From assembly GCA_949358305.1 (NCBI GenBank), contig OX442314.1, positions 5,704,001-5,768,000 on the forward strand: a stretch of 64,000 nucleotides of DNA, written 5' to 3'. Position 1 is the stretch's first letter, and each line of letters opens with the position of its first letter. This DNA is from Strigamia acuminata (Eukaryota). Below, piece after piece: positions 19,807-60,323 of the stretch. The notes under the pieces are model-generated. The model was not told the origin of the DNA. It saw only the letters and a program-made list of their open reading frames with translations, and searched no databases. A program made the position numbers and the translations under genes.

Positions 19807-19841
19807 GAAAATTGAGATCGCTCCGATCCGAGATCGAAGCT

Positions 19842-19851: not shown

Positions 19852-19853
19852 CG

Positions 19854-24023: not shown

Positions 24024-24133
24024 TAGATAAACCCTTGTTTTAGAATAAGGAATCACTTTGAATTTACCAAGCAAGCGTGTGTGTCGCAGTCTGCCATTTT
24101 TATTTCAAAGTCAAACTAGCAATAGTTTACATA

Positions 24134-26908: not shown

Positions 26909-26910
26909 CG

Positions 26911-26928
26911 TGGGGGCCTGTCCGGGAT
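26911..26928 (+). promoter_or_regulatory. Element B PBS, tRNA-Pro-like
   Basis: TGGGGGCCTGTCCGGGAT. Confidence 0.8.
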
Positions 26929-26976
26929 CGATTTAAACGACTCGAATAGAACTTGAGATCATTTTCATACCCAAAA

Positions 26977-29937
26977 ATGGCAGACAATATCCGAGTAACG
27001 GATTCCGACTCCGACGCGAACAAGAGAGCCGGCAGTCGTAAAGGCGCCGACTATCACTTGCGATCTGGAGGTCCCTTACCCAAAGCCTCAGCGCACGAAG
27101 CGAGGCAAAAACGGCGCAAGCCTAAACCCGATCGCAGAAGCGCATCAGAGGCATCGCACCCGTCTCGTTCCGAGACGAGGCAGCGATTGGACGAGACAGA
27201 GCGGGGTGAAGAGCAATCTCACTCCAAACTGCCGCGTTCTAACCGTGACGGCGAGACGAGCGGAAACGAGGTTTTATCCCGTAACCCATCGCCTCGTCTA
27301 ACGCACGACACCGAGGTGGGCAGTCCGAAAGCGGCGTCTCCGATACAAAAGACGGCCTCAAACACGACAGCTAATTCGGCACTAAACACGCCAATTACGC
27401 AAAGCCGCCCAGCTTCGGTCAGGTCCGAAGGACACAAGTCCAATGCGTCAAAAACTGAGCGTGTTCCGAGCCAGCCTTACAGCGTCTCGGCCACATTGGT
27501 TGACACGATGCAGTTGGCACAGGCAGAAGGTGTACGATACACTCTGCCAACGGGAAAAATAACTGTGTACGAAACATTACAAATCGTACGTGCAGCTTTA
27601 AGAGCGCACAGGTTATCCCCGGAAATCACCGTTGTTGAAGGCGCATACGCTCAACAAATGGTAGACTCCGCTCAATTCGAAGCGGATGCCGAGAATGAGG
27701 CCCGACAAGCCATCCGCGAGAGAAAGCGGAAGCTGGCGGAAAGAGAAGCGCGAGCTCTCGAGTACGGCAAATCCCAGCGCGTTCCGACTACTCCAGAAGA
27801 AGTCGAAATAGTTGATCGAGCCTTACGTGCACATCGTTATGCATTCCGTTCTCAACAAGAAGCTGAACAAGCTTTCATGACTAGGCTGCAACGAGACAAA
27901 CCAAAATCCGTTAGCAAGCCAGAAGTTAGCTCGTCCGAATTGTCCGACGAGAGCGTCGAAGGCGACCCGAAGCGCACGCCGAAGGTCAGCCCCAAACCCG
28001 AGCGAAAAAAGGAAGTGCCAGTCACTCCACGCAAACGGGAAGTCTCGACCGAACAACGCGTTCGACCTCGCATGATGGCGTTAGACGATAACACTAACAA
28101 CGCTATCAACCGATTAATAAATGCGAACAACGCGCGTCGTAACGAAGAACAGACTCACACGAGCCGACAACGCGACGACCCGCGGGGTAGCGACTGGCCA
28201 CAGCCGGTGCCCATCCTCAAAGACGACGGACCTTCGAGAAAACATTCCGAAGACCGCACATCGTCACGAGAGGAACGTCAACGCGAAAGAGGACAGCAAC
28301 AGTATCACTACGGAAACAGTGATTCGTCGTCGGATGAACTGGAGTCGAATGCACCCAGTCATCACGATTCGGAGAGAGGTTCCGGAGAAAGACGAAGGGA
28401 AAGAGAACGCGATGAACGCAGGGAAAGGGAACGTGACGACCGTCGTAGGGGCCGGAAAGAGTCAAACTCTTCACGGCGCAACCCGCCACGCCGCTCACCG
28501 TCTCCCGACCCCAGCTCCGACCCCTCGTCCAACGACGACAGACGAAATGATAAGTCAAGTAATCGCCGGAAGAGATCCAACTCTCCGCGCGATAGAGAGA
28601 AACGACGTCGATCGGAAAATAGCGACCACCGACGGGAGGAGTTTCAGGACCTTCCCCGACAAAGCGCGTTTACCGATTCGACGGGTCGGCAGTATACGAT
28701 GGGAGAGCTTGGAAGAGCCCTGCTTGGCTCGTTAAAAGCCGAAGGAATCGATCTGAGCAAACGAAATGATCGTAATCGTAACACTGGTGACCGCGTAAAG
28801 AAAAAATACGCTGTCTCCCGACGTGACACCATGAGTGTTACCGGGAATATTAGGTGGCAATTTTATATTCAGAACCGTTTCGACGGGTCATGGAAAGCGG
28901 GAGATCGCTTCCTTGACGAAGTAATTCGGATTAAGACTGCCACTAAAGCCACCGTAGGAGACATGCTCACCCACGGTATTGTCGAGCTAATGACAGGCTC
29001 GGCACGTGAGTGGTACCAAGGATTGAAAGGCGTCAATTGGGACGACTTTTTAATGAGATTCGACCTGCGCTACGGCGAGACACCCGAAGAGGTGAGCCGA
29101 AAGATGCGAGGTCTTCGCCAGATGCCTGGTGAAACCATAATGGATTACGACATTCGCGCCAGATTGTTGTTCGAAAAGGCCCCGATGGAATTTCATGCCA
29201 CGGGATTCAACCTTTTCTTTCTCGGCGGTTTGTCGGAATACTCGCAACGGGTGCTACTTGAAGAAAGGGCACCGACAGGAGGCAGCTACAAAGAAATGAG
29301 CGCCTTCCTGTTCGAGAACACGATAGATATCGAGAAGAGATATTATTCCGCTTTACCAGAAGCGGAGAAAGCAGCAACCGCTAAACGTCTCAAGTTGAGT
29401 GCGGAAAGATATGGGGCGACAGACAAAATCATGCGCCCTACTGAATATCTTAGCGGTATAATGGAGCTGGCAGAAGCTAGCGTTGGTTTACAAATAAAAA
29501 ATAAACTGACATCCACGCTGCCTTCCAACCCATTGGCCGCCCCTAAAAAGGCACCGACAGCGTCAGCCATGCAAGCGACACTGGAGGAGGTCAAGGAGGG
29601 GGAGGAAGCCGAACAAAATGTCGGAAAATCAGACGAAAAAGAAGAAAAAGACGATTATTCGACGGACGAAGAAATACGAAGCTATCGCGATACCTTATCA
29701 ACGGGTTGCGATGAGGAAGGACCGCTAGTACATCTCATCCATCGAGATAGAGCGGTAGAAGAATTTCGCGCCAGGTTAAAACCAAATGCCGGCCGAATTC
29801 CGAAGTATTTTCGAAAAAATTACACGCCACCGTCGAAAGTAGACCCTGAAAAAAAGAAATCGATTGAAGCCCCAAGAGACAAATCAAATATTCGTTGTTT
29901 TAAGTGTAACCAACCGGGTCACTATTCCAATGAGTGC
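26977..29937 (+). CDS. gag: Element B Gag, 5' part (to the end of the CCHC knuckle), interrupted
   Basis: ATG at 26977; capsid region highly similar to A Gag; CFKCNQPGHYSNEC ends at the TSD. Confidence 0.92.
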
Positions 29938-31851
29938 TATGACGGTTTACAATGGCTATAAATGCCTATTTTCTATCAAGAAAGCGCTGTTGCGCCAATA
30001 TGATGGTATTTTTACAATATTCTGTGTAAAACTGATAAATGTCTAGAATAAAGTCATTTATGATGTTTCAAATACAAAGATGTTCGTTTATTAAGAATAA
30101 ACACTAATTTCCACATGATACTAAAGTATCACGGCATAATTACGAAGATTCGTCTGCTAAAACCCGCATTTGTCAATGCTCCATATTGCCACTAGATGGC
30201 GCGATCGCAATTAGCGATAAATTCGAATACGAACTTGAAAACCTCATGATTAAATATAAACGTATATTTAATCAAGTGAATAAATTGTGTTAAATATTAA
30301 TATAAATATATATTAAATATCTGACATTGTTAAATACAATGTAACTTCCATTTCTGCGGGACAGAATGTTTAGCGATCAATCGGTCAACCGATCAATCTG
30401 ATTGGTGGAACCCATTTCCGGTCCTGGGTATCCAGTTCCGGTTGTAACAAGGATTAGCATAATTTGCATAAATGCTCCTCCGTATCCACTTCCGGTGATA
30501 CGGGATTGGAGGGATTCGTGGAACCCATGTTCCAATTGGATGACTGGATTAATCCTTAAATCCAGTCAGGTTATATAAACCCAAACAATCGGCCATTCCG
30601 CAGCTCTGTTTGATTATTTTCTGTTTGGTATTGTTACTTATGAAATATGATTCGTTGTTCACGTAAAAAACCTTTTGGTTCTTTGTTGATTTATTCGCAA
30701 AGAACCGTTGCATGATTCTACAGAATCATGCCACCGCCGGCAATTGAAGTCGAAGTGCTGGGATTATTATGTTGCATAAATGTTACAGTCTACGGTTGCG
30801 ACGCCGAAGGAGAACCCGCCGTTGTGCAATTCAGTATCCTCCGGACAGGACCAAGTTGTCTTTTTCGGTATGAACGTATTCCGTTACCACGAGTAGCATC
30901 GGTATTGTTGAGAATCGGTTCCTTCACCTGATGGTGCCAAAGCAGTCTGTTTTACAGTAACCACGAGTAGCACCAAGTGTTTGGCAAGCTGATTCTCATG
31001 GTATTCGATGCCAAAGCAGTCGGTCTATTATTAGTACCGCGAGAGATAAAACTGCTGTGCGGAGCCGCGAGCTATCGACCCCTGTGTACGTGGTACCGTC
31101 AACCACTCGATGGACGACCGTGCTGCGACGCCGGGGACGCTTGATACCGTTCTGCATGGCAAGGCGTATATTCTAATCGATGGCAATTGTGTGTTGCGAC
31201 GGGAAGCTTAATCTTCATTTTATTTATAACAGCAAAACTTAAACTCGACAACCAGTTGGACCAAAATCAAGTCAGAAGACTTAATCTCATATTGAACTCA
31301 ATATAACCGATAAGTTGACGACAACTTATTCCCGAAATATCTAAATAAGAATTCACAACGATATGAATTAAATATAATTCATAAGTGGAATATTGATAAG
31401 TAAATGAATACATTTACTTACACCAATATCCTCCCAAAGTTGTGGCGGTGCAGACAAAGTCAACCGCAATGCTCAGATCATTCGATTTATCGACGTGCGA
31501 TAGTTCACACAGCGAACCAAGGAAACCAGCGAAGCCGTATCGGACTCCAGGACACAGCCATCCGGCTTAAGATGACATCTATAATCAGGTCGAGCGATGG
31601 GGAAACCGCTCCCATATTCCAGACCCGTAGTGATATTATTCTAGGGCCAGTTGGCCAATTCTTTGTATAGTTTAATAGCTGATTTAACTTGCCAAATGTC
31701 GGCATTAGTCCTATGTATAATTTAGCCTTGATATTATTGTTTACCAACAATAAACTGTCTTGTATTTATCTCGTATTGTATTCACTGTTTATTTATTGCG
31801 ATCTCTTCCCGGTACCATTGTTAAATGGGAGTTGTGGTCGTCACTCTCACA
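29938..31851 (+). repeat. Element C 5' LTR
   Basis: Starts TATGACGG; TATATAAA at 30572; AATAAA ~31749; repeated at offset 7519. Confidence 0.95.
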
Positions 31852-31853
31852 CG

Positions 31854-31871
31854 TGGAGGTCCCACCGAGAT
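31854..31871 (+). promoter_or_regulatory. Element C PBS1 (tRNA-Gln); second copy at 32089-32106
   Basis: TGGAGGTCCCACCGAGAT, the complement of the tRNA-Gln 3' end. Confidence 0.9.
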
Positions 31872-34800
31872 TAGGTTGCAATTAAATTCGATTGAATTGC
31901 AACAGTGAATATTGGAGATAAATATTTAACTAAAAGATTTAAGTTAAAAATAGACAGATTAAATTTTCAGTTTATATTTCCATGTGAAGAAGTTAAACTG
32001 ATGAAATAGAAATACGTAGTAGATTTTCCTTCATTATTTTCGTTTGAAGATTTTAGGGATTTCAAAGACTACCACCTAATCTCACACGTGGAGGTCCCAC
32101 CGAGATTAGGTTGCAATTAAATTCGTTTGAATTGCAACAGTGAATATTTTGAGATAAATATTTAACTAAAAGATTTAGTTAAAAAACAGACAAGTTTCAA
32201 ACCATGTTTATTTTCTTGAGAAACACCAAAACAGTCCTTTAACTAGGAATTTCGGAAGTTATAGACCTATCACACGATCACTGAAATAGGTTGCAAATTA
32301 ATTCGATCGAATTGCAAAAGCGAATCTTGAATCCGATATTAACTAAAAAATTTTAGTTAAAACAGACAAATAGATTTTCAGTTTATATTTTCATGTGAAA
32401 AGTTAAACTGACGAAATGGAAACGTTTAGTGAACTCTCTTTACTATTTTCGTTCGACAATTTAAGGAATACGAAGTATTTTAAATAAGAAATCAAAAAAG
32501 TTTCGAGTGAAATAAGAATACAGATATTTTTTTTTCGAAGTTTGTTTTATTTCGAAAAGCTAAAAACATACAAGTTTAGAAGGCGGACTTCTTACGAATT
32601 TATCTTTCCACCTGAAAAGTTAAAACGAAGAAAACACCGCAACTATTTGGAAATATTTACAAGAAATTAAGTTTCTTGTAACTGTACGTCGACACCGATA
32701 GCCAGCGACCACGCGCCATAGCAATACGCGTCGATCTCCGTATCAAACGCAGCAGGGAAGCTACTCAAACCTTCAATGCAAGGTGCGAACGAATGCTTGG
32801 AAATTATGGCGGACAACAGATAAAAGACAGCGGAGAAATGTTACAGAAGGTTCGTAGAGATTTATTTAAGTGTCGCGAACTAATTTTTCCACTGCCATCG
32901 GTACCGAAGATAATTTAGTTGTTGAAGAAAAACAACACACTCCATTTCGCAGAAAAGATTTGCAAATCGAAATGAATATTACCTTTATTTGAAGGAATTA
33001 ACTATTTTCACAAAAAGTACATTTTTTCCTTCGGGACAATGGAAATTAAGAAAATATAAAATGGCGGCGAATGAAGTTGCCGACCACGTAGAATAGTATT
33101 TTTTACATTGAAAGTTACGAATCACGAAAAACGCTTTCCCTCGGAAAAGTAAAAGGATTTCATTCAATCTTTCCTTTCGGAAATTTAACAAGTGTTTTAA
33201 GTTTCCAACGATATTTGGGTCTCCCAAATTTTGAGAATTTCTAAATGAAATTTAGCTGTTTGAAAAACAACGAATATTTTTAGTAATCTAATCGGACATT
33301 TTCCCACATGATTTCTTAAAACCGGAATAACAAATCCATTTGTGGCTATGAACTTTGCCACATGAAATATTTACGGAGCGAATATTTTTTGATTGGATTG
33401 AAGCTTTAAAATCAGATAGCTGATTTAAACGAAGAAAATAAGTTTCAAAGTAATTATTTTTCTTTCGGAAAAATCAAATAAATCACCGCTGATGAAAAGT
33501 TGTATTTTTCCATTCGAAAAAACTAAGAATTGCACAAGATTTATCTTCTATTTTGAACATAGATTTTATTCGGAAAAGGAAAGATTCTAGATACATTATT
33601 TTTCTCTAAAAATTAAGAATTTAGTCAATTTTCCTAAAGGTTAATGGAATGTCATCATATATTTCGTTCGTAATTTACGTGTTAAAGTTTAATCAGAAAA
33701 ACGATTGAATATGTTTTATTTGCGATAAGTAAAAGAAAGGTTCTTTAAAAATGGAATTTCGATGCAAATCCCACAGTAAAGGGAATGTTATGTGTGAGCA
33801 ATTAACGAAAAGTTGGAATAACTTCATTTTATTTCATTCAAAAGTAGTTGTGAAAAATCAATTTCAAATATTTTTCAAAGAAAAATTATTTTTATCGGAA
33901 AAAAGTAATTTACATGTCCTCGCGCGGACCGAGTAGTAAACTGCTTAATTGTGACATCGATACTGTTATTGTGTCACGTGTTATACGGAATTCCAAACCA
34001 GTGAATTACGAATTTTGGCGCGATAGGAATAGAAGTTTGACAGTGAAAGTTCTCCAGATTTGTCTTTTCATTTGAAAAGTTCAAATTGAGGAAATGCTGC
34101 AGCAGATGAAGGTATTTACGACAATTGAGATTTAAATATTCTTTCATTCAAAAGATAAAAGATCTCTGCAAAAACATCTCGTTATTAGAGATAAGGGGGA
34201 CGAAAATTATTAAAACGAATAATCAAAGACACGTCCTTCGTAAATATCGCAAAGGAATAACTAATTGTGAAAACAATTGTCCGCTCAGGAAAAGTGGAAT
34301 TTAGCTAGATATTTTCTTTCGAAAAATCAAAGCAATTGTCATCAAAAAAGAAAGATTTGATGAATAATTTTTACCCAAAAGTCTAAAGGATTGTCGAATA
34401 GTTTTCTCCCGAAAAACAAGTACACATTTGTACCAATAACTTTATCGTTTAAAGTAAAATTTCGAATATTTTCTTTTGGAAGATTAGAGAATTAGATAAT
34501 TTTTCTCGCAAAACAAATTTAAAGAATTTTAACGAATTTTTATTTGTTAAAAAAATTTGTTAAAAAAGGGGGAGATGGATGGTGAAAATTTATTTTTTCA
34601 CACTCGAAAAATGGAATTTAAACCCGAAAAAGTAAAGACTTGGTCAAATTATTCTTCCTATTGGAAATGAATACACAATGTTGGGAATCGAAAATAGATT
34701 TCAATTACAAAGGAATGATTATTTGAACGATAATTGAATAAGAATAAGAAAAATTGAGAGTTTGAGAAAACTTTATTAAAGTTGTGGTTGTAACGATATC

Positions 34801-35039
34801 ACACACTAACGGAATAATTAAAAGAAAAATATTTTTTGAAGAAAAGTTATTTAATTATTTGGATTGGTAAAAATCCCAAAGTTCAAGAAGATTGAAGTAA
34901 GTTTATTTTATTTTCATTTGAAAAATACAATATTTTACGAATGTCTTCCCGAAGGAATTTTATTTTATCGGTAAAATTGAATCTCGAAGGGAACGGACTT
35001 AGTAGAGAACTACTAAATAGATGTAACGTCCTTTATACC

Positions 35040-35137
35040 ATTGGCCGACACTAACATCCGCCAATCAGAAGTTGGGAGATCTAGGGATCCCCAGCCCCCT
35101 GCTATTAAAGGAGGACCAGATCAGATACTGATCATTC
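35040..35137 (+). promoter_or_regulatory. Putative internal Pol II promoter of element C (CCAAT boxes, TATA-like box, Inr)
   Basis: ATTGG 35040, CCAAT 35061, TATTAAA 35103, TCATTC 35132 (TATA at -31 relative to the Inr A). Confidence 0.6.
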
Positions 35138-35379
35138 GCATCCAGACCAGACCAGAAGACGTGTTCCAGAGTCATCTTGACCACGCCGTCCCGATTTCAG
35201 TCACGATTCGAATTTTGTGTGCCGTGTAACCTGCAAAAGCTAACACGTGTCAAACAAACGCGAAGTTTAATTTTATTTTGTCAAAAGTAAAGTTTAGAAG
35301 TGTTTCTTGTTGAAAAGTGTATTATATTCGTCTTCTTTATAAATTAAAGAATTAAAATCGTCAGATTTTGAATTTTTTT

Positions 35380-36861
35380 ATGGCTCAAAAACCATTGAAT
35401 ATGATCGATCCAAAAGGAAATAATAAGCAGACAAACTTAAATTTAAGTTCTATACCACTTGGCGATCAAACAGAAAAGATTCCCGATCATTTTACTCTGT
35501 ATTGTAATCGTCATGGACTGGATAAAACCAAGTTTAAAAATATAATCGAAGCTTCAGACTATGTAAAAGCTAGGAACTGGCGAGATCGTACCCAATCTCA
35601 ATCTTCACATCAAGATCCAGTACGGAATCCACAAACATACAGCCGAAACTTAGTGAATCAAGATTCTCATACTATGTTTCAAACATCCAGTAGGGGATCT
35701 AAGTTAGAAAAGTTTAAACCACCTAATTCGGTAGATAAGGGGGAAGAGAATTATAAACCTAATAATTCTCGTCCAGAGAGTTCGTTAACTAACCAGTCGG
35801 TTGTTCAGAACAAATTAAAACTCGTTTACAATCGAGATCAGCTAATTTCAGTTCGATATGCTAATCCAGCTGAAGCACAACAATATGTGGCTAGCCTTAA
35901 TCTGTCGATTAACCTACCGCTATCAAAAGAATTGGGAACCGTAAACAAAAGTTTTGGGCCACCAATATCAACGCAAAGGAAAGATATTCGGACTCCAAAC
36001 AAACATTTACAGTCAAATAACGTACAACAACGTGCCCGATCGCCGATCACAAACTCATGTTTGCGGACGTATGATTTGTCTACCAAGAAGAGTCCCCAGC
36101 CAAGACAATTCTACCTAACGCCCATTTCAAATCGAAAAAAGGTCAAGCAAACTTTTCCCTTGAAAAAGTATTACCAACACGATAATGAGAATGATTTTAA
36201 ACCTAAAAAAGAAAGTTTTTTGACTAACCCACGGGAGATCCGGTATCAATTCGAACAGTATTGTAAACAATACCAGTTAAATTCAGCTGAATTTAAAAAT
36301 ATAAACGAAGCGCAACAATTCGTATTTCGAAATCAATACCGTAACCAACGACTAAAACCCGTCCCAGTCGTCAATCTGACGGAGATACAACAATTTGCGT
36401 CTGGAAAGCAACCCTGCAATATCCAGAATAATTCATCTCAACGAGAGGAATTAAGAACTTCAAAAAAGCGTTTTCGGTCACCAAGTCCAGCTGGTGATGA
36501 AGAAACTTCAAGTACAAACCAACATGTTCAAAAACTGACTGAAAACCCAGGTTTCCAATCATCAGTTCCACGACTTAGAGTCAAATATAGATCCCCTCGT
36601 TTGTTGCGGGATTTCACAATTCCAAATATGGGTCCTTTCCACGTATGGTTTTCCAATGAGGGTCCCATTCATGTATGGTTTTCCAGAGATGACCTAAAAC
36701 AAAAAGTTGGGTCGTCACGGTCATTTACACTGCCAAGTCAGTACACTGTATGTAACTGCCCAAAGGAAAAACGTCGAAAGAAATCAGTACAGCAGGCTGA
36801 GAGATCTCGGAAATTCGCAAATATGCGAGCTCAATATTTAGCAAAGAATCATGTTGATTAA
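35380..36861 (+). CDS. Element C orphan cargo ORF (~493 aa, basic, N/Q/S-rich, internal repeat)
   Basis: Only long ORF in the AT-rich interior; ATG at 35380; conserved in copy D apart from one stop codon and a few substitutions. Confidence 0.7.
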   Translation: MAQKPLNMIDPKGNNKQTNLNLSSIPLGDQTEKIPDHFTLYCNRHGLDKTKFKNIIEASDYVKARNWRDRTQSQSSHQDPVRNPQTYSRNLVNQDSHTMFQTSSRGSKLEKFKPPNSVDKGEENYKPNNSRPESSLTNQSVVQNKLKLVYNRDQLISVRYANPAEAQQYVASLNLSINLPLSKELGTVNKSFGPPISTQRKDIRTPNKHLQSNNVQQRARSPITNSCLRTYDLSTKKSPQPRQFYLTPISNRKKVKQTFPLKKYYQHDNENDFKPKKESFLTNPREIRYQFEQYCKQYQLNSAEFKNINEAQQFVFRNQYRNQRLKPVPVVNLTEIQQFASGKQPCNIQNNSSQREELRTSKKRFRSPSPAGDEETSSTNQHVQKLTENPGFQSSVPRLRVKYRSPRLLRDFTIPNMGPFHVWFSNEGPIHVWFSRDDLKQKVGSSRSFTLPSQYTVCNCPKEKRRKKSVQQAERSRKFANMRAQYLAKNHVD

Positions 36862-37456
36862 CATGATATGATACACAAAGATTCCCCGATTATAGTGTAA
36901 ACAGAAAATCCTCTTCTAAAAATCATGACCTCTCTTCTAAAGAAAAGGAGGACAAAATATAAAGTTAAAATTAACAATTCTCGAAAAGTAATATTACAGT
37001 ATTAAAAGACAACTAGTTTAAATTAAAATTAGTCAATTGTACAAAGAATACCAAGTGACTCCGGTCATGACAATTAAGGAGGACATTTTGATTCTTAAAT
37101 TGTCAACTCTTATCATCTAAAAGCTATTTATTGTATATTTATAGCGATACATCTGACTAGGCATATGAAATAAATATTTTGTGATAACACAAATGATGAT
37201 TTTATGTATGACGAAAGTTTCTTCAAAAAGAAGACTTGGAAATAAATTCTGGACTTGAATTTAGGCTATTAGAAAAGATTATTTCGGCAGAAATCCAGAA
37301 CTTAGATAATTCAAGTTAGTTTATGTAAACTCAAATTCGAAATTGGAAGTCACGGTATCTCCAAGATACATCAAGTCCGAAAATAGCATTTATGCTAATT
37401 AGGAGAATAACGAAAACTCTATAAAATATTATATAGTTGTGTTATTAAGGGGGATG

Positions 37457-39370
37457 TATGACGGTTTACAATGGCTATAAATGCCTATTTTCTATCAAGA
37501 AAGCGCTGTTGCGCCAATATGATGGTATTTTTACAATATTCTGTGTAAAACTGATAAATGTCTAGAATAAAGTCATTTATGATGTTTCAAATACAAAGAT
37601 GTTCGTTTATTAAGAATAAACACTAATTTCCACATGATACTAAAGTATCACGGCATAATTACGAAGATTCGTCTGCTAAAACCCGCATTTGTCAATGCTC
37701 CATATTGCCACTAGATGGCGCGATCGCAATTAGCGATAAATTCGAATACGAACTTGAAAACCTCATGATTAAATATAAACGTATATTTAATCAAGTGAAT
37801 AAATTGTGTTAAATATTAATATAAATATATATTAAATATCTGACATTGTTAAATACAATGTAACTTCCATTTCTGCGGGACAGAATGTTTAGCGATCAAT
37901 CGGTCAACCGATCAATCTGATTGGTGGAACCCATTTCCGGTCCTGGGTATCCAGTTCCGGTTGTAACAAGGATTAGCATAATTTGCATAAATGCTCCTCC
38001 GTATCCACTTCCGGTGATACGGGATTGGAGGGATTCGTGGAACCCATGTTCCAATTGGATGACTGGATTAATCCTTAAATCCAGTCAGGTTATATAAACC
38101 CAAACAATCGGCCATTCCGCAGCTCTGTTTGATTATTTTCTGTTTGGTATTGTTACTTATGAAATATGATTCGTTGTTCACGTAAAAAACCTTTTGGTTC
38201 TTTGTTGATTTATTCGCAAAGAACCGTTGCATGATTCTACAGAATCATGCCACCGCCGGCAATTGAAGTCGAAGTGCTGGGATTATTATGTTGCATAAAT
38301 GTTACAGTCTACGGTTGCGACGCCGAAGGAGAACCCGCCGTTGTGCAATTCAGTATCCTCCGGACAGGACCAAGTTGTCTTTTTCGGTATGAACGTATTC
38401 CGTTACCACGAGTAGCATCGGTATTGTTGAGAATCGGTTCCTTCACCTGATGGTGCCAAAGCAGTCTGTTTTACAGTAACCACGAGTAGCACCAAGTGTT
38501 TGGCAAGCTGATTCTCATGGTATTCGATGCCAAAGCAGTCGGTCTATTATTAGTACCGCGAGAGATAAAACTGCTGTGCGGAGCCGCGAGCTATCGACCC
38601 CTGTGTACGTGGTACCGTCAACCACTCGATGGACGACCGTGCTGCGACGCCGGGGACGCTTGATACCGTTCTGCATGGCAAGGCGTATATTCTAATCGAT
38701 GGCAATTGTGTGTTGCGACGGGAAGCTTAATCTTCATTTTATTTATAACAGCAAAACTTAAACTCGACAACCAGTTGGACCAAAATCAAGTCAGAAGACT
38801 TAATCTCATATTGAACTCAATATAACCGATAAGTTGACGACAACTTATTCCCGAAATATCTAAATAAGAATTCACAACGATATGAATTAAATATAATTCA
38901 TAAGTGGAATATTGATAAGTAAATGAATACATTTACTTACACCAATATCCTCCCAAAGTTGTGGCGGTGCAGACAAAGTCAACCGCAATGCTCAGATCAT
39001 TCGATTTATCGACGTGCGATAGTTCACACAGCGAACCAAGGAAACCAGCGAAGCCGTATCGGACTCCAGGACACAGCCATCCGGCTTAAGATGACATCTA
39101 TAATCAGGTCGAGCGATGGGGAAACCGCTCCCATATTCCAGACCCGTAGTGATATTATTCTAGGGCCAGTTGGCCAATTCTTTGTATAGTTTAATAGCTG
39201 ATTTAACTTGCCAAATGTCGGCATTAGTCCTATGTATAATTTAGCCTTGATATTATTGTTTACCAACAATAAACTGTCTTGTATTTATCTCGTATTGTAT
39301 TCACTGTTTATTTATTGCGATCTCTTCCCGGTACCATTGTTAAATGGGAGTTGTGGTCGTCACCGTCACA
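37457..39370 (+). repeat. Element C 3' LTR
   Basis: Preceded by PPT AAGGGGGATG; ends CCGTCACA, followed by TSD GTGC. Confidence 0.95.
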
Positions 39371-39374
39371 GTGC

Positions 39375-39494
39375 CCAAGAACAGCGAAAGAAGACGCTAA
39401 GTTTGACGCGATAATGAAGCAGATGGCAGAGATTAAACTCGCCATGGCAAAAAACGAGTCAAAAAACGAGTCAGCGCAGGCGGCGAAGAAATAA
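39375..39494 (+). CDS. gag: Element B Gag C-terminal remainder
   Basis: PRTAKEDAKFDAIMKQMAEIKLAMAKNESKNESAQAAKK* rejoins in frame when C plus one TSD is removed, and aligns with the A Gag tail. Confidence 0.9.
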   Translation, partial: PRTAKEDAKFDAIMKQMAEIKLAMAKNESKNESAQAAKK

Positions 39495-39512
39495 CTTCTC
39501 GACCGTCTGCGC
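39449..39512 (+). promoter_or_regulatory. -1 frameshift signal of element B
   Basis: Two in-frame A_AAA_AAC heptamers (39449, 39461), 6-nt spacer, stem GCGCAGGCGG/CCGTCTGCGC. Confidence 0.85.
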
Positions 39513-44068: not shown

Positions 44069-44161
44069 ATGGATGAGGAAGGAGGGGACGAGGAAATGCT
44101 TGAAATACAGCATCATGACGAGAATTGGGACCCGGACATAAACGTAGTTCCACCCGATCAG
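44069..44161 (+). CDS. Element B ORF3, predicted exon 1 (31 aa, ...HDENWDPDINVVPPDQ)
   Basis: ATG at 44069; donor CAG|GTAGTA in phase 0; DENWD shared with A. Confidence 0.7.
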
Positions 44162-50875: not shown

Positions 50876-53800
50876 TATGACGGTTTACAATGGCTATAAA
50901 TGCCTATTTTCTATCAAGAAAGCGCTGTTGCGCCAATATGATGGTATTTTTACAATATTCTGTGTAAAACTGATAAATGTCTAGAATAAAGTCATTTATG
51001 ATGTTTCAAATACAAAGATGTTCGTTTATTAAGAATAAACACTAATTTCCACATGATACTAAAGTATCACGGCATAATTACGAAGATTCGTCTGCTAAAA
51101 CCCGCATTTGTCAATGCTCCATATTGCCACTAGATGGCGCGATCGCAATTAGCGATAAATTCGAATACGAACTTGAAAACCTCATGATTAAATATAAACG
51201 TATATTTAATCAAGTGAATAAATTGTGTTAAATATTAATATAAATATATATTAAATATCTGACATTGTTAAATACAATGTAACTTCCATTTCTGCGGGAC
51301 AGAATGTTTAGCGATCAATCGGTCAACCGATCAATCTGATTGGTGGAACCCATTTCCGGTCCTGGGTATCCAGTTCCGGTTGTAACAAGGATTAGCATAA
51401 TTTGCATAAATGCTCCTCCGTATCCACTTCCGGTGATACGGGATTGGAGGGATTCGTGGAACCCATGTTCCAATTGGATGACTGGATTAATCCTTAAATC
51501 CAGTCAGGTTATATAAACCCAAACAATCGGCCATTCCGCAGCTCTGTTTGATTATTTTCTGTTTGGTATTGTTACTTAAGAAATATGATTCGTTGTTCAC
51601 GTAAAAAACCTTTTGGTTCTTTGTTGATTTATTCGCAAAGAACCGTTGCATGATTCTACAGAATCATGCCACCGCCGGCAATTGAAGTCGAAGTGCTGGG
51701 ATTATTATGTTGCATAAATGTTACAGTCTACGGTTGCGACGCCGAAGGAGAACCCGCCGTTGTGCAATTCAGTATCCTCCGGACAGGACCAAGTTGTCTT
51801 TTTCGGTATGAACGTATTCCGTTACCACGAGTAGCATCGGTATTGTTGAGAATTGGTTCCTTCACCTGATGGTGCCAAAGCAGTCTGTTTTACAGTAACC
51901 ACGAGTAGCACCAAGTGTTTGGCAAGCTGATTCTCATGGTATTCGATGCCAAAGTAGTCGGTCTATTATTAGTACCGCGAGAGATAAAACTGCTGTGCGG
52001 AGCCGCGAGCTATCGACCCCTGTGTACGTGGTGCCGTCAATCGCTAGACGAACGACCGTGCTGCGACGCCGGGGACGCTTGATACCGTTCTGCATGGCAA
52101 GGCGTATAAATCTTTCGACGGCAATTGTGTGTTGCGACGGGAAGCCTAATCTTCATTTTATTTATAACAGCTAAATATTAACTTGGCGACAAGTTGATTA
52201 ACCAAGTCAGAAGACTTAACTACGATCACGATTACATCAAGACGCAAATGTAACCGATAAGTTGACGACAACTTATCCACAAAATATCTGAATAAGAATT
52301 CACAACGATATGAATTAAGTATAATTCATAAGCGGAATATTGATAAGTAAATGAATACATTTACTTACACCAATATCCTCCCAAAGTTGTGGCGGTGCAG
52401 ACAAAGTCAACCGCAATGCTCAGATCATTCGATTTATCGACGTGCGATAATTTACACAGCGAACCAAGGAAACCAGCGAAGCCATATCGGACTCCAGGAC
52501 ACAGCCATCCGGCTTAGATGACATCTGTAAACCAGGTCGAGCGATGGGGAAACCGCTCCCTTATCCCAGACACGTAATGATATTATTATAAAGCCATTTG
52601 GCTAACTTGTTGTATAGTTTAAATAGTCAGTTAACTTGCCAAATGTTGGCATTAGTCTTATGTATAATTTAGCTCACTGCATATTGTTTGCCAACAATAA
52701 ACTGTCTTGTATTTATCTCGTATTGTATTCACTGTTTATTTATTGCGATCTCTTCCCGGTACCATTGTTAAATGGGAGTTGTGGTCGTCACCGTCACACG
52801 TGGAGGTCCCACCGAGATTAGGTTGCAATTAAATTCGATTGAATTGCAACAGTGAATATTGGAGATAAATATTTAACTAAAAGATTTAAGTTAAAAATAG
52901 ACAGATTAAATTCTCAGTTTATATTTCCATGTGAAGAAGTTAAACTGATGAAATAGAAATGTGTAGTAGATTTTCCTTCATTATTTTCGTTCGAAGATTT
53001 AAGGGATTTCAAAGACTACCACCTAATCTCACACGTGGAGGTCCCACCGAGATTAGGTTGCAATTAAATTCGATAGAATTGTAAAAGTGAATTTTGAGAT
53101 AAATATTTAACTAAAAGATTTAGTTAAAAAACAGACAAGTTTCAAACCATGTTTATTTTCTTGAGAAACACCAAAACAGTCCTTTAACTAGGAATTTCGG
53201 AAGTTATAGACCTATCACACGATCACTGAAATAGGTTGCAAATTAATTCGATCGAATTGCAAAAGCGAATCTTGAATCCGATATTAACTAAAAAATTTTA
53301 GTTAAAACAGACAAATAGATTTTCAGTTTATATTTTCATGTGAAAAGTTAAACTGACGAAATGGAAACGTTTAGTGAACTCTCTTTACTATTTTCGTTCG
53401 ACAATTTAAGGAATACGAAGTATTTTAAATAAGAAATCAAAAAAGTTTCGAGTGAAATAAGAATACAGATATTTTTTTTTCGAAGTTTGTTTTATTTCGA
53501 AAAGCTAAAAACATACAAGTTTAGAAGGCGGACTTCTTACGAATTTATCTTTCCACCTGAAAAGTTAAAACGAAGAAAACACCGCAACTATTTGGAAATA
53601 TTTACAAGAAATTAAGTTTCTTGTAACTGTACGTCGACACCGATAGCCAGCGACCACGCGCCATAGCAATACGCGTCGATCTCCGTATCAAACGCAGCAG
53701 GGAAGCTACTCAAACCTTCAATGCAAGGTGCGAACGAATGCTTGGAAATTATGGCGGACAACAGATAAAAGACAGCGGAGAAATGTTACAGAAGGTTCGT

Positions 53801-56800
53801 AGAGATTTATTTAAGTGTCGCGAACTAATTTTTCCACTGCCATCGGTACCGAAGATAATTTAGTTGTTGAAGAAAAACAACACACTCCATTTCGCAGAAA
53901 AGATTTGCAAATCGAAATGAATATTACCTTTATTTGAAGGAATTAACTATTTTCACAAAAAGTACATTTTTTCCTTCGGGACAATGGAAATTAAGAAAAT
54001 ATAAAATGGCGGCGAATGAAGTTGCCGACCACGTAGAATAGTATTTTTTACATTGAAAGTTACGAATCACGATAAACGCTTTCCCTCGGAAAAGTAAAAG
54101 GATTTCATTCAATCTTTCCTTTCGGAAATTTAACAGTGTTTTAAGTTTCCAACGATATTTGGGTCTCCCAAATTTTGAGAATTTCTAAATGAAATTTAGC
54201 TGTTTGAAAAACAACGAATATTTTTAGTAATCTAATCGGACATTTTCCCACATGATTTCTTAAAACCGGAATAACAAATCCATTTGTGGCTATGAACTTT
54301 GCCACATGAAATATTTACGGAGCGAATATTTTTTGATTGGATTGAAGCTTTAAAATCAGATAGCTGATTTAAACGAAGAAAATAAGTTTCAAAGTAATTA
54401 TTTTTCTTTCGGAAAAATCAAATAAATCACCGCTGATGAAAAGTTGTATTTTTCCATTCGAAAAAACTAAGAATTGCACAAGATTTATCTTCTATTTTGA
54501 ACATAGATTTTATTCGGAAAAGGAAAGATTCTAGATACATTATTTTTCTCTAAAAATTAAGAATTTAGTCAATTTTCCTAAAGGTTAATGGAATGTCATC
54601 ATATATTTCGTTCGTAATTTACGTGTTAAAGTTTAATCAGAAAAACGATTGAATATGTTTTATTTGCGATAAGTAAAAGAAAGGTTCTTTAAAAATGGAA
54701 TTTCGATGCAAATCCCACAGTAAAGGGAATGTTATGTGTGAGCAATTAACGAAAAGTTGGAATAACTTCATTTTATTTCATTCAAAAGTAGTTGTGAAAA
54801 ATCAATTTCAAATATTTTTCAAAGAAAAATTATTTTTATCGGAAAAAAGTAATTTACATGTCCTCGCGCGGACCGAGTAGTAAACTGCTTAATTGTGACA
54901 TCGATACTGTTATTGTGTCACGTGTTATACGGAATTCCAAACCAGTGAATTACGAATTTTGGCGCGATAGGAATAGAAGTTTGACAGTGAAAGTTCTCCA
55001 GATTTGTCTTTTCATTTGAAAAGTTCAAATTGAGGAAATGCTGCAGCAGATGAAGGTATTTACGACAATTGAGATTTAAATATTCTTTCATTCAAAAGAT
55101 AAAAGATCTCTGCAAAAACATCTCGTTATTAGAGATAAGGGGGACGAAAATTATTAAAACGAATAATCAAAGACACGTCCTTCGTAAATATCGCAAAGGA
55201 ATAACTAATTGTGAAAACAATTGTCCGCTCAGGAAAAGTGGAATTTAGCTAGATATTTTCTTTCGAAAAATCACAGCAATTGTCATCAAAAAAGAAAGAT
55301 TTGATGAATAATTTTTACCCAAAAGTCTAAAGGATTGTCGAATAGTTTTCTCCCGAAAAACAAGTACACATTTGTACCAATAACTTTATCGTTTAAAGTA
55401 AAATTTCGAATATTTTCTTTTGGAAGATTAGAGAATTAGATAATTTTTCTCGCAAAACAAATTTAAAGAATTTTAACGAATTTTTATTTGTTAAAAAAAT
55501 TTGTTAAAAAAGGGGGAGATGGATGGTGAAAATTTATTTTTTCACACTCGAAAAATGGAATTTAAACCCGAAAAAGTAAAGACTTGGTCAAATTATTCTT
55601 CCTATTGGAAATGAATACACAATGTTGGGAATCGAAAATAGATTTCAATTACAAAGGAATGATTATTTGAACGATAATTGAATAAGAATAAGAAAAATTG
55701 AGAGTTTGAGAAAACTTTATTAAAACTGTGGTTGTAATGATATTACACACTAAACGGAATAATCAAAGAAAAATATTTTTTGAAGAAAAGTTATTTAATT
55801 ATTTGGATTGGTAAAAATCCCAAAGTTCAAGAAGATTGAAGTAAGTTTATTTTATTTTCATTTGAAAAATACAATATTTTACGAATGTCTTCCCGAAGGA
55901 ATTTTATTTTATCGGTAAAATTGAATCTCGAAGGGAACGGACTTAGTAGAGAACTACTAAATAGATGTAACGTCCTTTATACCATTGGCCGACACTAACA
56001 TCCGCCAATCAGAAGTTGGGAGATCTAGGGATCCCCAGCCCCCTGCTATTAAAGGAGGACCAGATCAGATACTGATCATTCGCATCCAGACCAGACCAGA
56101 AGACGTGTTCCAGAGTCATCTTGACCACGCCGTCCCGATTTCAGTCACGATTCGAATTTTGTGTGCCGTGTAACCTGCAAAAGCTAACACGTGTCAAACA
56201 AACGCGAAGTTTAATTTTATTTTGTCAAAAGTAAAGTTTAGAAGTGTTTCTTGTTGAAAAGTGTATTATATTCGTCTTCTTTATAAATTAAAGAATTAAA
56301 ATCGTCAGATTTTGAATTTTTTTATGGCTCAAAAACCATTGAATATGATCGATCCAAAAGGAAATAATAAGCAGACAAACTTAAATTTAAGTTCTGTACC
56401 ACTTGGCGATCAAACAGAAAAGATTCCCGATCATTTTACTCTGTATTGTAATCGTCATGGACTGGATAAAACCAAGTTTAAAAATATAATCGAAGCTTCA
56501 GACTATGTATAAGCTAGGAACTGGCGAGATCGTACCCAATCTCAATCTTCACATCAAGATCCAGTACGGAATCCACAAACATACAGCCGAAACTTAGTGA
56601 ATCAAGATTCTCATACTATGTTTCAAACATCCAGTAGGGGATCTAAGTTAGAAAAGTTTAAACCACCTAATTCGGTAGATAAGGGGGAAGAGAATTATAA
56701 ACCTAATAATTCTCATCCAGAGAGTTCGTTAACTAACCAGTCGGTTGTTCAGAACAAATTAAAACTCGTTTACAATCGAGATCAGCTAATTTCAGTTCGA

Positions 56801-59800
56801 TATGCTAATCCAGCTGAAGCACAACGATATGTGGCTAGCCTTAATCTGTCGATTAACCTACCGCTATCAAAAGAATTGGGAACCGTAAACAAAAGTTTTG
56901 GGCCACCAATATCAACGCAAAGGAAAGATATTCGGACTCCAAACAAACATTTACAGTCAAATAACGTACAACAACGTGCCCGATCGCCGATCACAAACTC
57001 ATGTTTGCGGACGTATGATTTGTCTACCAAGAAGAGTCCCCAGCCAAGACAATTCTACCTAACGCCCATTTCAAATCGAAAAAAGGTCAAGCAAACTTTT
57101 CCCTTGAAAAAGTATTACCAACACGATAATGAGAATGATTTTAAACCTAAAAAAGAAAGTTTTTTGACTAACCCACGGGAGATCCGGTATCAATTCGAAC
57201 AGTATTGTAAACAATACCAGTTAAATTCAGCTGAATTTAAAAATATAAACGAAGCGCAACAATTCGTATTTCGAAATCAATACCGTAACCAACGACTAAA
57301 ACCCGTCCCAGTCGTCAATCTGACGGAGATACAACAATTTGCGTCTGGAAAGCAACCCTGCAATATCCAGAATAATTCATCTCAACGAGAGGAATTAAGA
57401 ACTTCAAAAAAGCGTTTTCGGTCACCAAGTCCAGCTGGTGATGAAGAAACTTCAAGTACAAACCAACATGTTCAAAAACTGACTGAAAACCCAGGTTTCC
57501 AATCATCAGTTCCACGACTTAGAGTCAAATATAGATCCCCTCGTTTGTTGCGGGATTTCACAATTCCAAATATGGGTCCTTTCCACGTATGGTTTTCCAA
57601 TGAGGGTCCCATTCATGTATGGTTTTCCAGAGATGACCTAAAACAAAAAGTTGGGTCGTCACGGTCATTTACACTGCCAAGTCAGTACACTGTATGTAAC
57701 TGCCCAAAGGAAAAACGTCGAAAGAAATCAGTACAGCAGGCTGAGAGATCTCGGAAATTCGCAAATATGCGAGCTCAATATTTAGCAAAGAATCATGTTG
57801 ATTAACATGATATGATACACAAAGATTCCCCGATTATAGTGTAAACAGAAAATCCTCTTCTAAAAATCATGACCTCTCTTCTAAAGAAAAAGGGGACAAA
57901 ATATAAAGTTAAAATTAACAATTCTCGAAAAGTAATATTACAGTATTAAAAGACAACTAGTTTAAATTAAAATTAGTCAATTGTACAAAGAATACCAAGT
58001 GACTCCGGTCATGACAATTAAGGGGGACATTTTGATTCTTAAATTGTCAACTCTTATCATCTAAAAGCTATTTATTGTATATTTATAGCGATACATCTGA
58101 CTAGGCATATGAAATAAATATTTTGTGATAACACAAATAATGATTTTATGTATGACGAAAGTTTCTTCAAAAAGAAGACTTGGAAATAAATTCTGGACTT
58201 GAATTTAGGCTATTAGAAAAGATTATTTCGGCAGAAATCCAGAACTTAGATAATTCAAGTTAGTTTATGTAAACTCAAATTCGAAATTGGAAGTCACGGT
58301 ATCTCCAAGATACATCAAGTCCGAAAATAGCATTTATGCTAATTAGGAGAATAACGAAAACTCTATAAAATATTATATAGTTGTGTTATTAAGGGGGATG
58401 TATGACGGTTTACAATGGCTATAAATGCCTATTTTCTATCAAGAAAGCGCTGTTGCGCCAATATGATGGTATTTTTACAATATTCTGTGTAAAACTGATA
58501 AATGTCTAGAATAAAGTCATTTATGATGTTTCAAATACAAAGATGTTCGTTTATTAAGAATAAACACTAATTTCCACATGATACTAAAGTATCACGGCAT
58601 AATTACGAAGATTCGTCTGCTAAAACCCGCATTTGTCAATGCTCCATATTGCCACTAGATGGCGCGATCGCAATTAGCGATAAATTCGAATACGAACTTG
58701 AAAACCTCATGATTAAATATAAACGTATATTTAATCAAGTGAATAAATTGTGTTAAATATTAATATAAATATATATTAAATATCTGACATTGTTAAATAC
58801 AATGTAACTTCCATTTCTGCGGGACAGAATGTTTAGCGATCAATCGGTCAACCGATCAATCTGATTGGTGGAACCCATTTCCGGTCCTGGGTATCCAGTT
58901 CCGGTTGTAACAAGGATTAGCATAATTTGCATAAATGCTCCTCCGTATCCACTTCCGGTGATACGGGATTGGAGGGATTCGTGGAACCCATGTTCCAATT
59001 GGATGACTGGATTAATCCTTAAATCCAGTCAGGTTATATAAACCCAAACAATCGGCCATTCCGCAGCTCTGTTTGATTATTTTCTGTTTGGTATTGTTAC
59101 TTAAGAAATATGATTCGTTGTTCACGTAAAAAACCTTTTGGTTCTTTGTTGATTTATTCGCAAAGAACCGTTGCATGATTCTACAGAATCATGCCACCGC
59201 CGGCAATTGAAGTCGAAGTGCTGGGATTATTATGTTGCATAAATGTTACAGTCTACGGTTGCGACGCCGAAGGAGAACCCGCCGTTGTGCAATTCAGTAT
59301 CCTCCGGACAGGACCAAGTTGTCTTTTTCGGTATGAACGTATTCCGTTACCACGAGTAGCATCGGTATTGTTGAGAATTGGTTCCTTCACCTGATGGTGC
59401 CAAAGCAGTCTGTTTTACAGTAACCACGAGTAGCACCAAGTGTTTGGCAAGCTGATTCTCATGGTATTCGATGCCAAAGTAGTCGGTCTATTATTAGTAC
59501 CGCGAGAGATAAAACTGCTGTGCGGAGCCGCGAGCTATCGACCCCTGTGTACGTGGTGCCGTCAATCGCTAGACGAACGACCGTGCTGCGACGCCGGGGA
59601 CGCTTGATACCGTTCTGCATGGCAAGGCGTATAAATCTTTCGACGGCAATTGTGTGTTGCGACGGGAAGCCTAATCTTCATTTTATTTATAACAGCTAAA
59701 TATTAACTTGGCGACAAGTTGATTAACCAAGTCAGAAGACTTAACTACGATCACGATTACATCAAGACGCAAATGTAACCGATAAGTTGACGACAACTTA

Positions 59801-60323
59801 TCCACAAAATATCTGAATAAGAATTCACAACGATATGAATTAAGTATAATTCATAAGCGGAATATTGATAAGTAAATGAATACATTTACTTACACCAATA
59901 TCCTCCCAAAGTTGTGGCGGTGCAGACAAAGTCAACCGCAATGCTCAGATCATTCGATTTATCGACGTGCGATAATTTACACAGCGAACCAAGGAAACCA
60001 GCGAAGCCATATCGGACTCCAGGACACAGCCATCCGGCTTAGATGACATCTGTAAACCAGGTCGAGCGATGGGGAAACCGCTCCCTTATCCCAGACACGT
60101 AATGATATTATTATAAAGCCATTTGGCTAACTTGTTGTATAGTTTAAATAGTCAGTTAACTTGCCAAATGTTGGCATTAGTCTTATGTATAATTTAGCTC
60201 ACTGCATATTGTTTGCCAACAATAAACTGTCTTGTATTTATCTCGTATTGTATTCACTGTTTATTTATTGCGATCTCTTCCCGGTACCATTGTTAAATGG
60301 GAGTTGTGGTCGTCACCGTCACA
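50876..60323 (+). mobile_element. Element D: second copy of the C family (9448 bp)
   Basis: 1923-bp LTRs (50876-52798, 58401-60323); TSD ACCT; PBS at 52801 and 53036; interior nearly identical to C. Confidence 0.95.
56324..57805 (+). pseudogene. Element D copy of the cargo ORF with a nonsense mutation
   Basis: AAA>TAA at 56510-56512 relative to copy C. Confidence 0.85.

Follow-up and report, generated by a model that had tools for sequence, protein, structure and literature searches.

Two LTR elements within a 64-kb window

The window analyzed here, i.e., the whole stretch of 64,000 nt from Strigamia acuminata contig OX442314.1 (positions 5,704,001 to 5,768,000, forward strand), contains two related elements, C and D, as well as the elements A, B and E. 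Direct LTRs, a PBS (primer binding site), a polypurine tract (PPT) and a TSD are all present in C and D (Table 1), which identifies both as recently inserted LTR retrotransposons; an earlier note, made from the letters alone, had described two copies of approx. 9.4 kb with these features and near-identical LTR pairs, and all of them were confirmed at both loci. The two LTRs of C differ at only 2 positions (31845-6; 99.9% identity), and those of D (1923 bp each) show no mismatches (100% identity). Between C and D, the interiors are approx. 99.5% alike and the LTRs approx. 95% alike, with 55 of 58 substitutions located within LTR positions 1100-1900. The empty-site joint 29932>39370, which represents B's gag without C, was found in three of the four sequencing runs examined (X1-X3).

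The 2-nt spacers and the 4-bp TSD of C and D match those of the gypsy elements A and B. The termini given in the earlier note can be specified further as TA...CA, and to its single PBS we add a duplicate at 32089. A TATA at 30572 and an AATAAA near 31749 would imply a long R of approx. 1.15 kb.

Table 1. Coordinates of elements C and D and of their features (positions within the window)
Feature	Position	Strand	Remarks
Element C, full length	29938..39370	+	9433 bp; inserted into gag of gypsy element B, at its zinc-knuckle end
TSD of C	29934..29937	+	GTGC; right copy 39371-39374
5' LTR of C	29938..31851	+	1914 bp; TA...CA ends
PBS of C	31854..31871	+	2 nt past 5' LTR
Tandem duplicate of LTR end and PBS leader	32080..32330	+	Second full PBS 32089-32106, plus decayed third copy
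AT-rich non-coding interior	32200..35000	+	30% GC; runs of short hairpins; candidate packaging region
Promoter-like cluster	35061..35137	+	Putative; CCAAT 35061, TATA-like 35103, Inr-like 35132
493-aa ORF	35380..36861	+	pI 10.1; three basic NLS-like clusters; predicted mostly disordered
Protein repeat 1	35464..35604	+	aa ~29-75
Protein repeat 2	35791..35919	+	aa ~138-180; weaker
Protein repeat 3	36214..36354	+	aa ~279-325; helix-loop-helix model, pLDDT 86
PPT of C	37447..37454	+	2 nt ahead of 3' LTR
3' LTR of C	37457..39370	+	1914 bp; contains the U3 block below
U3 block homologous to E's U3	37679-37850 (approx.)	+	E side ~61039-60876, minus strand; 114/147 aligned positions identical
Element D, second copy	50876..60323	+	LTRs 50876-52798 and 58401-60323; TSD ACCT
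ORF of D	56324-57805	+	Premature stop at codon 63

The interior and its open reading frame

Searches for relics of gag or pol (Pfam on the ORF and on 15 frame translations, tblastn, and profiles built from the A and B gag and pol) were all blank, in agreement with the earlier note, which had recognized no such relic. As no gag-pol coding capacity was found, C and D can be classified as non-autonomous LTR elements. The non-coding interior of C itself has relatives at 88-93% identity; together with the absence of any gag/pol remnant in 3.5 kb, this indicates that the gag/pol-free interior looks old. Rfam provided no match across 29938-37460. The motif TTTC-N2-6-GAAA, which was picked after inspection, occurs 17 times in the C interior as compared to 2.9 ± 1.8 expected occurrences; its assignment to STAT or heat-shock sites was rejected, as the spacer length is variable (3 to 6 nt). 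The mean folding z was -1.5 for the C interior, as compared to -0.2 and -0.6 for host DNA, -2.0 for the LTR, and -2.9 and -2.2 for the intergenic regions of A and E, respectively. The interior thus folds no more strongly than the LTR or the A and E intergenic regions, and folding is not special to C.

The ORF is far longer than expected by chance, as stop-free runs reached at most 220 codons (interior composition) or 263 codons (ORF composition) in 500 simulations. It starts 3.5 kb past the PBS, behind 58 AUGs counted from the LTR start site, and is separated from the 3' LTR by 596 nt, which places it past the pol position, in the slot of accessory genes. The CCAAT, TATA-like and Inr-like calls upstream of it follow consensus motifs. 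A, B and E each carry their own Pfam-less orphan ORF at the same 3' position; comparison of the C ORF with ORF3 of A and B and with the ORF of E found no similarity. GC3 is 0.31 for the C ORF, 0.39 for a host ENaC exon and 0.55-0.66 for the A, B and E ORFs. The C and D ORFs show four differences, and all four alter or end the protein. While the earlier note had assigned a 493-aa ORF to each copy, this holds for C and not for D, so that one of the two copies in the window is broken.

The ORF protein has no transmembrane stretch (maximum 19-residue hydropathy of 0.75), and thus does not resemble an Env in this respect. It has no zinc knuckle and matched neither the Pfam Gag models nor the A/B Gag profile nor any Env, consistent with the earlier view that the ORF is not a recognized Gag. 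The whole-protein model was unusable (pLDDT 41), showing short helices alone, without a capsid-like bundle. For the repeat model, the best Z was 4.0 (rmsd 3.5, 46 aligned, MyoD-E47), level with unrelated folds, and comparison against PDB and viral structure libraries yielded nothing at E ≤ 0.001 and nothing at Z ≥ 5. A SAP/HeH identity, considered as a candidate for the repeats, was unsupported by this structure comparison, and Pfam HLH did not match the ORF repeat. No homologues of the ORF were found in Pfam, the ESM Atlas (whole protein and repeat), PDB sequences, metagenome contigs or, at near and shorter lengths, an index of 5.8 billion proteins; the pattern formed by the LTR end and PBS was likewise absent from the metagenome contigs. 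Orphan status is weak evidence here, however, because the Pol of a neighboring element itself has only 31-47% database matches.

Copies in public DNA runs and relationship to neighboring elements

Contigs from public DNA runs point to roughly 60-140 copies in X1 and only a few in X3, although these depths are uncalibrated on a single-copy locus and do not represent a copy number. In X1, the main interior contigs showed depths of 8,982-11,413, as compared to 67-190 for rare contigs, and ORF contigs were about equal in depth to interior contigs. Decay of the ORF in most copies had been named in the earlier note as the outcome that would speak against its reading; D is broken at codon 63, but the main X1 contig keeps this codon open. 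The X3 run showed ORF contigs at depths of 207-215 (27-132 for rare contigs), while the leader contig 31850-32095, with 28 substitutions and 12 gaps, reached 672 as compared to approx. 210 for the ORF. As the ORF is covered less deeply in X3 than the leader, the non-coding interior and the LTR end, sister elements without this version of the ORF probably exist. Run X6 contained scattered short pieces only.

Diverged relatives of the ORF (82-86% identity; X1 depths of 168 and 67.5, i.e., near single-copy) showed no net frameshift. The piece at 35716-36015 has 55 substitutions and no gaps, and the piece at 36432-36861, which ends at the stop, has 60 substitutions and gaps that amount to a net loss of 6 nt; neither piece is linked to a copy without gag/pol, and both could come from a host gene or from an autonomous parent. 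Gap letters numbered 6 per 115 substitutions in the ORF as compared to 101 per 262 in eleven diverged non-coding pieces, a contrast that counts letters rather than events on pieces selected by length, and which the Fisher P value overstates, as indels accumulate more quickly in non-coding DNA rich in homopolymers. Within the ORF, three joints from X3 leave out 81 nt (with the start codon remaining in frame), 39 nt and 66 nt, all multiples of three; the latter two joints are defined by their ends, without the letters between. The main variants of X3 and X1 differed by 10 nonsynonymous and 4 synonymous changes (dN/dS approx. 0.69, P = 0.36; 40 best-supported rows only), and none of these 14 listed differences is a stop. 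As 239 indel rows and 19 joints lie outside the rows compared, frameshifted minor copies may exist. In line with the proposal that the element maintains its ORF, the reading frame is kept across the 82-86% relatives; the amino acid changes among recent copies reveal no clear constraint.

Comparison of the PPT/U3 regions of C and E yielded a score of 109, as compared to 81 ± 9 for shuffled sequences (none of 500 shuffles reached 109), while A and B showed no such likeness. The resemblance to E reported in the earlier note was therefore upheld, yet it is confined to one U3 block of approx. 170 nt; windowed tests found no C-E similarity outside U3, and a modest whole-region score did not localize. 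As E's 5' part and pol lie beyond the window, this homology is to an element whose pol is unseen. No DNA similarity of C to A or B was found. The PBS of C and D, which we take to be tRNA-Gln, differs from that of A and B, presumably tRNA-Pro; no tRNA genes were found within the 64-kb window. The earlier note had considered A and B unlikely helpers on the basis of this difference. The difference stands, but the conclusion does not follow from it, as VL30 (mostly Gly PBS) was reported to be packaged and delivered by HIV-1 vector particles with a Lys PBS (bioRxiv 10.1101/2022.02.01.478686), and a PBS mismatch thus does not exclude A and B as helpers of C and D.

Interpretation and comparison with known systems

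With moderate confidence, we interpret C and D as a recently amplified gag/pol-less LTR element, likely copied by a Ty3/gypsy helper, that keeps one 3' gene, which is likely the accessory gene of its lineage and is predicted to be a nuclear regulator favoring spread. The LTR promoter would produce an RNA of approx. 8.7 kb, the hairpin-rich and AUG-rich 5' half of which would serve packaging rather than translation. A helper Gag would package this RNA and a helper RT would prime at the PBS and PPT, cis sites that are present in both elements. Integration trims the ends to TA...CA and leaves the 4-bp TSDs, with the 2-nt spacer geometry of A and B. The ORF may be transcribed from the internal promoter at approx. 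35060-35135 and, in the least certain step, its basic product with three helix-loop-helix repeats might act in the nucleus on DNA or RNA of the element or its helper, with transactivator, anti-silencer and export factor as candidate roles. The earlier picture of a satellite-like element mobilized in trans with a cargo gene is retained in that the element was recently active, is gag/pol-less, must move in trans and carries a real gene. However, the corresponding slot is occupied by an orphan ORF in each of A, B and E, and this gene is therefore better read as a retained accessory gene of the lineage than as cargo.

It is possible, though rather doubtful, that the ORF was selected as ORF3 of an autonomous parent and that C and D arose by deletion or recombination, the gene now drifting and the burst being too young for decay. 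The stop in D, the four non-silent differences between C and D, the non-significant dN/dS and the probable sister elements in X3 that lack this version of the ORF are all consistent with drift; conversely, the apparent age of the gag/pol-free interior and the 14 ORF differences between the X1 and X3 main variants, none of them a stop, argue against it. Capture of a host gene by transduction as in Bs1, in which a LARD-type element took up a host mRNA and now amplifies it passively, seems improbable. While GC3 of the ORF is near that of the host ENaC exon and unlike that of the A, B and E ORFs, the entire element is AT-rich, and while ORF-like pieces occur in X1 at near single-copy depth, diverged non-coding interior pieces occur at the same low depths, which points to old element copies. 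Moreover, a promoter-like cluster precedes the ORF, inspection of the sequence revealed no poly(A) scar, and protein-index searches, in which this lineage is poorly sampled, found no host homologue of the ORF. Mammalian MaLR elements carry a single gag-derived ORF, and a Gag diverged past recognition, which would make C and D TR-GAG- or MaLR-like, could account for a single basic ORF of Gag-like length in a lineage where profile searches weaken. We regard this as very improbable given the position of the ORF in the 3' slot far behind the PBS and 58 AUGs, the lack of a zinc knuckle or Gag profile match, and a model with short helices only, even if of low pLDDT.

A more far-reaching version of the accessory-gene reading, in which a satellite retroelement without replication genes is sustained by a single nuclear protein that acts in trans as an anti-silencer or transactivator and releases the helper as well, appears unlikely; such a protein would account for the much higher apparent abundance of both C and the autonomous element B in X1 than in X3. 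If true, an animal would harbor a retrotransposon counterpart of helper-satellite mutualism or of anti-silencing of the VANC type. The function of non-env accessory ORFs in gypsy elements is described as an open question in one report (PMC7264820). A stripped element that keeps such a gene in frame, and whose abundance differs approx. tenfold between two samples under one species label, isolates the contribution of that gene. If the gene is selected on a non-autonomous element, accessory genes can outvalue replication genes for a parasite of a retrotransposon. If it is not, C and D belong to an ordinary, very young LARD-like family, the copies of which would be wrongly annotated by pipelines as dozens of species-specific host genes.

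No animal family with the layout of C was found in the published literature searched, which omitted most subscription papers. Bdelloid TelKA2n (PMC5408684) likewise lost replication genes and kept an extra ORF, but retains gag and pol in part and has an env-like ORF. Non-autonomous Retand elements (PMC11963269) also keep an accessory ORF, mostly antisense and with a TRP28 domain. Unlike in both, no trace of gag or pol was found in C, and its ORF is sense, non-transmembrane and without a domain match. Maize Grande gene23 (PMC7264820) is located past the pol position, ahead of the 3' LTR, and has a promoter of its own and a nuclear product, but is antisense and accompanied by gag-pol; Oikopleura Tor env (PMC4402516) occupies this slot in an animal, as a third gene with an internal promoter, but encodes a membrane Env and coexists with gag-pol. 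TR-GAG elements (PMC4350172) are non-autonomous, active or once-active, with a single ORF, but this ORF is a Gag and the elements are under 4 kb, whereas C has 9.4 kb; mammalian MaLR (PMC4724089) is likewise a non-autonomous LTR element, while the ORF of C is located 3' and lacks a Gag match. In maize Bs1 (PMC13317346), a gene without a replicative role is carried and translated, but the cargo consists of recognizable host gene fragments. Mouse VL30 (bioRxiv 10.1101/2022.02.01.478686) is carried by the particles of viruses whose PBS differs from its own, but is non-coding, with no ORF. LARDs are defined as non-autonomous elements of more than 4 kb that have LTRs, a PBS and a PPT but lack gag/pol, their long interior being structured and non-coding (PMC6696364); C shares the length (9433 bp), the LTRs, PBS and PPT, the absence of gag/pol and the structured interior, and differs by its animal host and by the intact 493-aa ORF of its majority variant, which sets it apart from a non-coding element.

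The C and D elements and their surroundings

The window is animal DNA with nested LTR elements, the host being placed among animals by an exon of a DEG/ENaC channel gene. C and D, two copies of a gag/pol-less LTR element, are real and active. The LTRs of C (1914 bp) show 2 mismatches and those of D (1923 bp) are identical; the TSDs are GTGC (C) and ACCT (D), the termini are TA...CA, and the PBS and PPT lie 2 nt 3' of the 5' LTR and 2 nt 5' of the 3' LTR, in agreement with the near-identical LTR pairs, 4-bp TSDs, PBS and PPT reported in the earlier note. An empty site of C was seen in three of the four public sequencing runs compared (all runs were used as assembled DNA contigs), and D apparently inserted in the putative 3' LTR of E, an element whose 5' part lies beyond the window. 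The C/D PBS is duplicated, with the second copy 235 nt downstream. The interiors of C and D are approx. 99.5% alike and 55 of the 58 substitutions between their LTRs cluster in LTR positions 1100-1900, which suggests recombination that shuffles two R/U5 haplotypes. The PBS-leader repeats (31845-32145) are more alike in C than in D or the main contigs of run X1, and at its 5' LTR end C matches the second repeat in those 2 bases; candidate causes are local conversion, template switching and an assembly effect.

Positions of host and LTR element features in the window
Feature	Position	Remarks
DEG/ENaC (ASC) channel gene, last exon	6247-6623	Pfam E 3.5e-13
Element A, Ty3/gypsy	7806-20673	gag and pol, identical LTRs
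Third ORF of A	16340-19806	884 aa, basic, proline-rich, no Pfam match
Element B, Ty3/gypsy	25913-48862	gag and pol, identical LTRs
Third ORF of B	44070-47827	1008 aa, basic, proline-rich, no Pfam match
Element C	29938-39370	within zinc-knuckle end of B's gag
ORF of C	35380-36861 (+)	493 aa
Element D	50876-60323	between B and E
ORF of D	56324-57805	
Element E	60324-64000 (minus) and 50081-50875	

The autonomous elements A and B share the pol order protease-RT-RNase H-integrase, and gag and pol occupy separate ORFs, as seen at 11860-12004 in A and 39370-39518 in B. Their Pol proteins are 66% alike and database matches of B's Pol reach just 31-47% identity; A and B thus appear to represent a poorly sampled gypsy lineage. 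Their third ORFs are 31% alike in the N-terminal parts (E 3e-20) and look like putative intron-bearing accessory genes within an LTR retrotransposon; an apparent short ATG exon and GT..AG introns lie upstream of each. A interrupts an element that resembles a MITE and bears long inverted repeats (7419-7805 and 20674-21070), and a related one lies at approx. 21180-21725. The E ORF (495 aa) has four CxxC motifs, a splice-acceptor-like site directly 5' and a 769-nt AT-rich region 3'; E may likewise lack gag/pol, or it may belong to the helper lineage. As A, B and E all carry an ORF without Pfam match in the 3' slot that the C ORF occupies, accessory genes are the norm among the LTR elements of the window.

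Coding content of C and D and copies in other sequence data

Pfam searches of the ORF, and of all other LTR and interior sequence as 15 frame translations with X at stops, gave no significant match, and tblastn and profiles from Gag, Pol and ORF3 of A and B found no match in C better than E 0.97. The absence of a gag/pol relic claimed previously was thus upheld, and the ORF is not recognizable as Gag by Pfam or the A/B Gag profile. The 3.5-kb interior (30% GC) forms consecutive short hairpins, with 17 occurrences of TTTC-N2-6-GAAA against 2.9 ± 1.8 expected (300 simulations; motif picked post hoc). Its folding (mean z -1.5) is stronger than that of host DNA but not than that of the LTR or the A/E intergenic regions; a packaging role for this candidate region is plausible.

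The C/D interior was present in three of six runs, from two studies; X1 or X2 may be the source sample of the window itself. In X1, main interior contigs reached depths of 8,982-11,413 as compared to 67-190 for rare variant contigs, and in X3 ORF contigs reached 207-215 as compared to 27-132; as contig depth is not copy number and the ratios are to rare contigs rather than a single-copy locus, these values only roughly suggest 60-140 copies in X1 and few in X3. Scaled to B, C is approx. 7-fold rarer in X3 than in X1. B gag contigs (29600-29936, 39373-39700) showed depths of 21,000-28,000 in X1 and 3,956 in X3, and B and C may have expanded jointly. Full-length copies should show double the interior depth in their LTRs, and X1 approx. 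does so at LTR position 61 (22,916). Near the U5 end depth exceeds that of the interior approx. 3-fold in X1 and that of the ORF 6- to 8-fold in X3, which implies that this end also occurs in solo LTRs or in sister families.

The ORF, its product and its maintenance

Chance does not account for the ORF of 493 codons, since stop-free runs grew no longer than 220-263 codons over 500 simulations. A stretch of 596 nt separates its end from the 3' LTR, and a transcript begun at the LTR start site would have 58 AUGs ahead of the ORF's own. A promoter-like cluster 5' of the ORF (CCAAT at 35061, TATA-like at 35103, Inr-like at 35132) suggests that it may have its own promoter. Depth in X3 is far above that of the ORF (3,061 at 35172, with 13 variant contigs) over the initial 70 nt of the RNA that the internal promoter would produce (35133-35200), a stretch also matched in run X6; this putative leader may be common to other families. 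The predicted protein (pI 10.1) has three basic clusters, no transmembrane stretch and an internal repeat (repeat 1 versus repeat 3, score 65; a single shuffle out of 2000 scored as high), and a weaker third copy can be aligned. The whole-protein structure model was poor (pLDDT 41); the repeat alone was modelled as helix-loop-helix (pLDDT 86; 3-row alignment), and none of its structural matches was significant (best Z 4.0). No homologues were found in the protein index (entries of similar or shorter length), ESM Atlas, PDB sequences or metagenome contigs. As even B's Pol finds only distant matches in the same database, "orphan" status reflects sampling more than it reflects novelty.

The earlier note had the element maintaining its gene, and we checked whether most copies hold a decayed ORF. 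Codon 63 is open in the main X1 contig over 35186-35745, so the premature stop that D has at this codon is the less common variant. Of two diverged pieces of the ORF, one (82% identity) is free of gaps over 300 nt and the other (86%) has a net change of -6 nt over 430 nt; by comparison, 11 diverged non-coding pieces totalling 2,769 nt contain 101 gap letters. Among the X3 joints listed, three inside the ORF remove 81, 39 and 66 nt, and the 81-nt joint leaves the start codon in frame. These patterns point to a reading frame constrained long-term somewhere in the lineage. A low-depth X3 contig (depth 35) is rearranged in the ORF (36080>33191). Maintenance stands as to the open frame in main variants and the frame kept in diverged pieces, but not as to protein sequence, the residues of which change fast: all 4 differences between the C and D ORFs are non-silent, one being the stop, and X3 and X1 main variants differ at 10 nonsynonymous and 4 synonymous sites among those listed, once 3 that occur in C alone are set aside (dN/dS 0.69, P = 0.36). 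This comparison draws on the 40 best-supported entries, and a further 538 substitution entries, 239 indel entries and 19 joints lie beyond those considered here. The diverged ORF pieces are not linked to a gag/pol-less copy. We somewhat favor selection on the non-autonomous element itself.

Origin, helper and comparison with known systems

The C ORF showed no similarity to the 3' ORFs of A, B or E. The U3 of C resembles that of E, as noted before (score 109, shuffles 81 ± 9, 0 of 500 reaching it), and no such similarity to A or B was found. This U3 homology points to a common ancestry of C's LTR with E's lineage; it is limited to approx. 170 nt, and E does not appear to be a close partner. One X3 contig of the leader has 3 times the ORF depth and carries 28 substitutions plus 12 gaps; it is a candidate for a sister or helper family. 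A and B had been considered improbable helpers; the PBS of C/D is indeed unlike theirs (we take the tRNAs to be Gln for C/D and Pro for A/B), while spacer geometry and TSD length match. A or B may still be the helper in spite of this PBS difference, since HIV-1 vector particles (Lys PBS) delivered VL30 genomes (mostly Gly PBS) in bioRxiv 10.1101/2022.02.01.478686.

C and D combine cis sites, integration footprints, no recognizable gag/pol, high depth and a frame open in the main variants. A gypsy helper would very probably package and reverse-transcribe their RNA, and the ORF would likely be expressed from the internal promoter. More tentatively, its product could be a nuclear regulator, by analogy with Grande gene23 (PMC7264820) and VANC (bioRxiv 10.1101/2024.04.02.587720). 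It seems quite unlikely that the protein is a regulator acting in trans on the helper as well.

The ORF of MaLR elements is gag-derived. MaLR elements are themselves non-autonomous (PMC4724089). LARDs (PMC6696364) and VL30 work like C/D, but C/D are not non-coding, which sets them apart from both; as compared to TR-GAG elements (PMC4350172), C/D differ in size and their ORF has no Gag match. We found no animal family with exactly the C/D layout in the literature searched. Bdelloid TelKA2n (PMC5408684) and some Retand elements (PMC11963269) are non-autonomous and retain an extra ORF. Tor has an internal promoter for a third gene (PMC4402516), and Bs1 (PMC13317346) and zebrafish LTR elements (PMC8672886) carry host-gene cargo.
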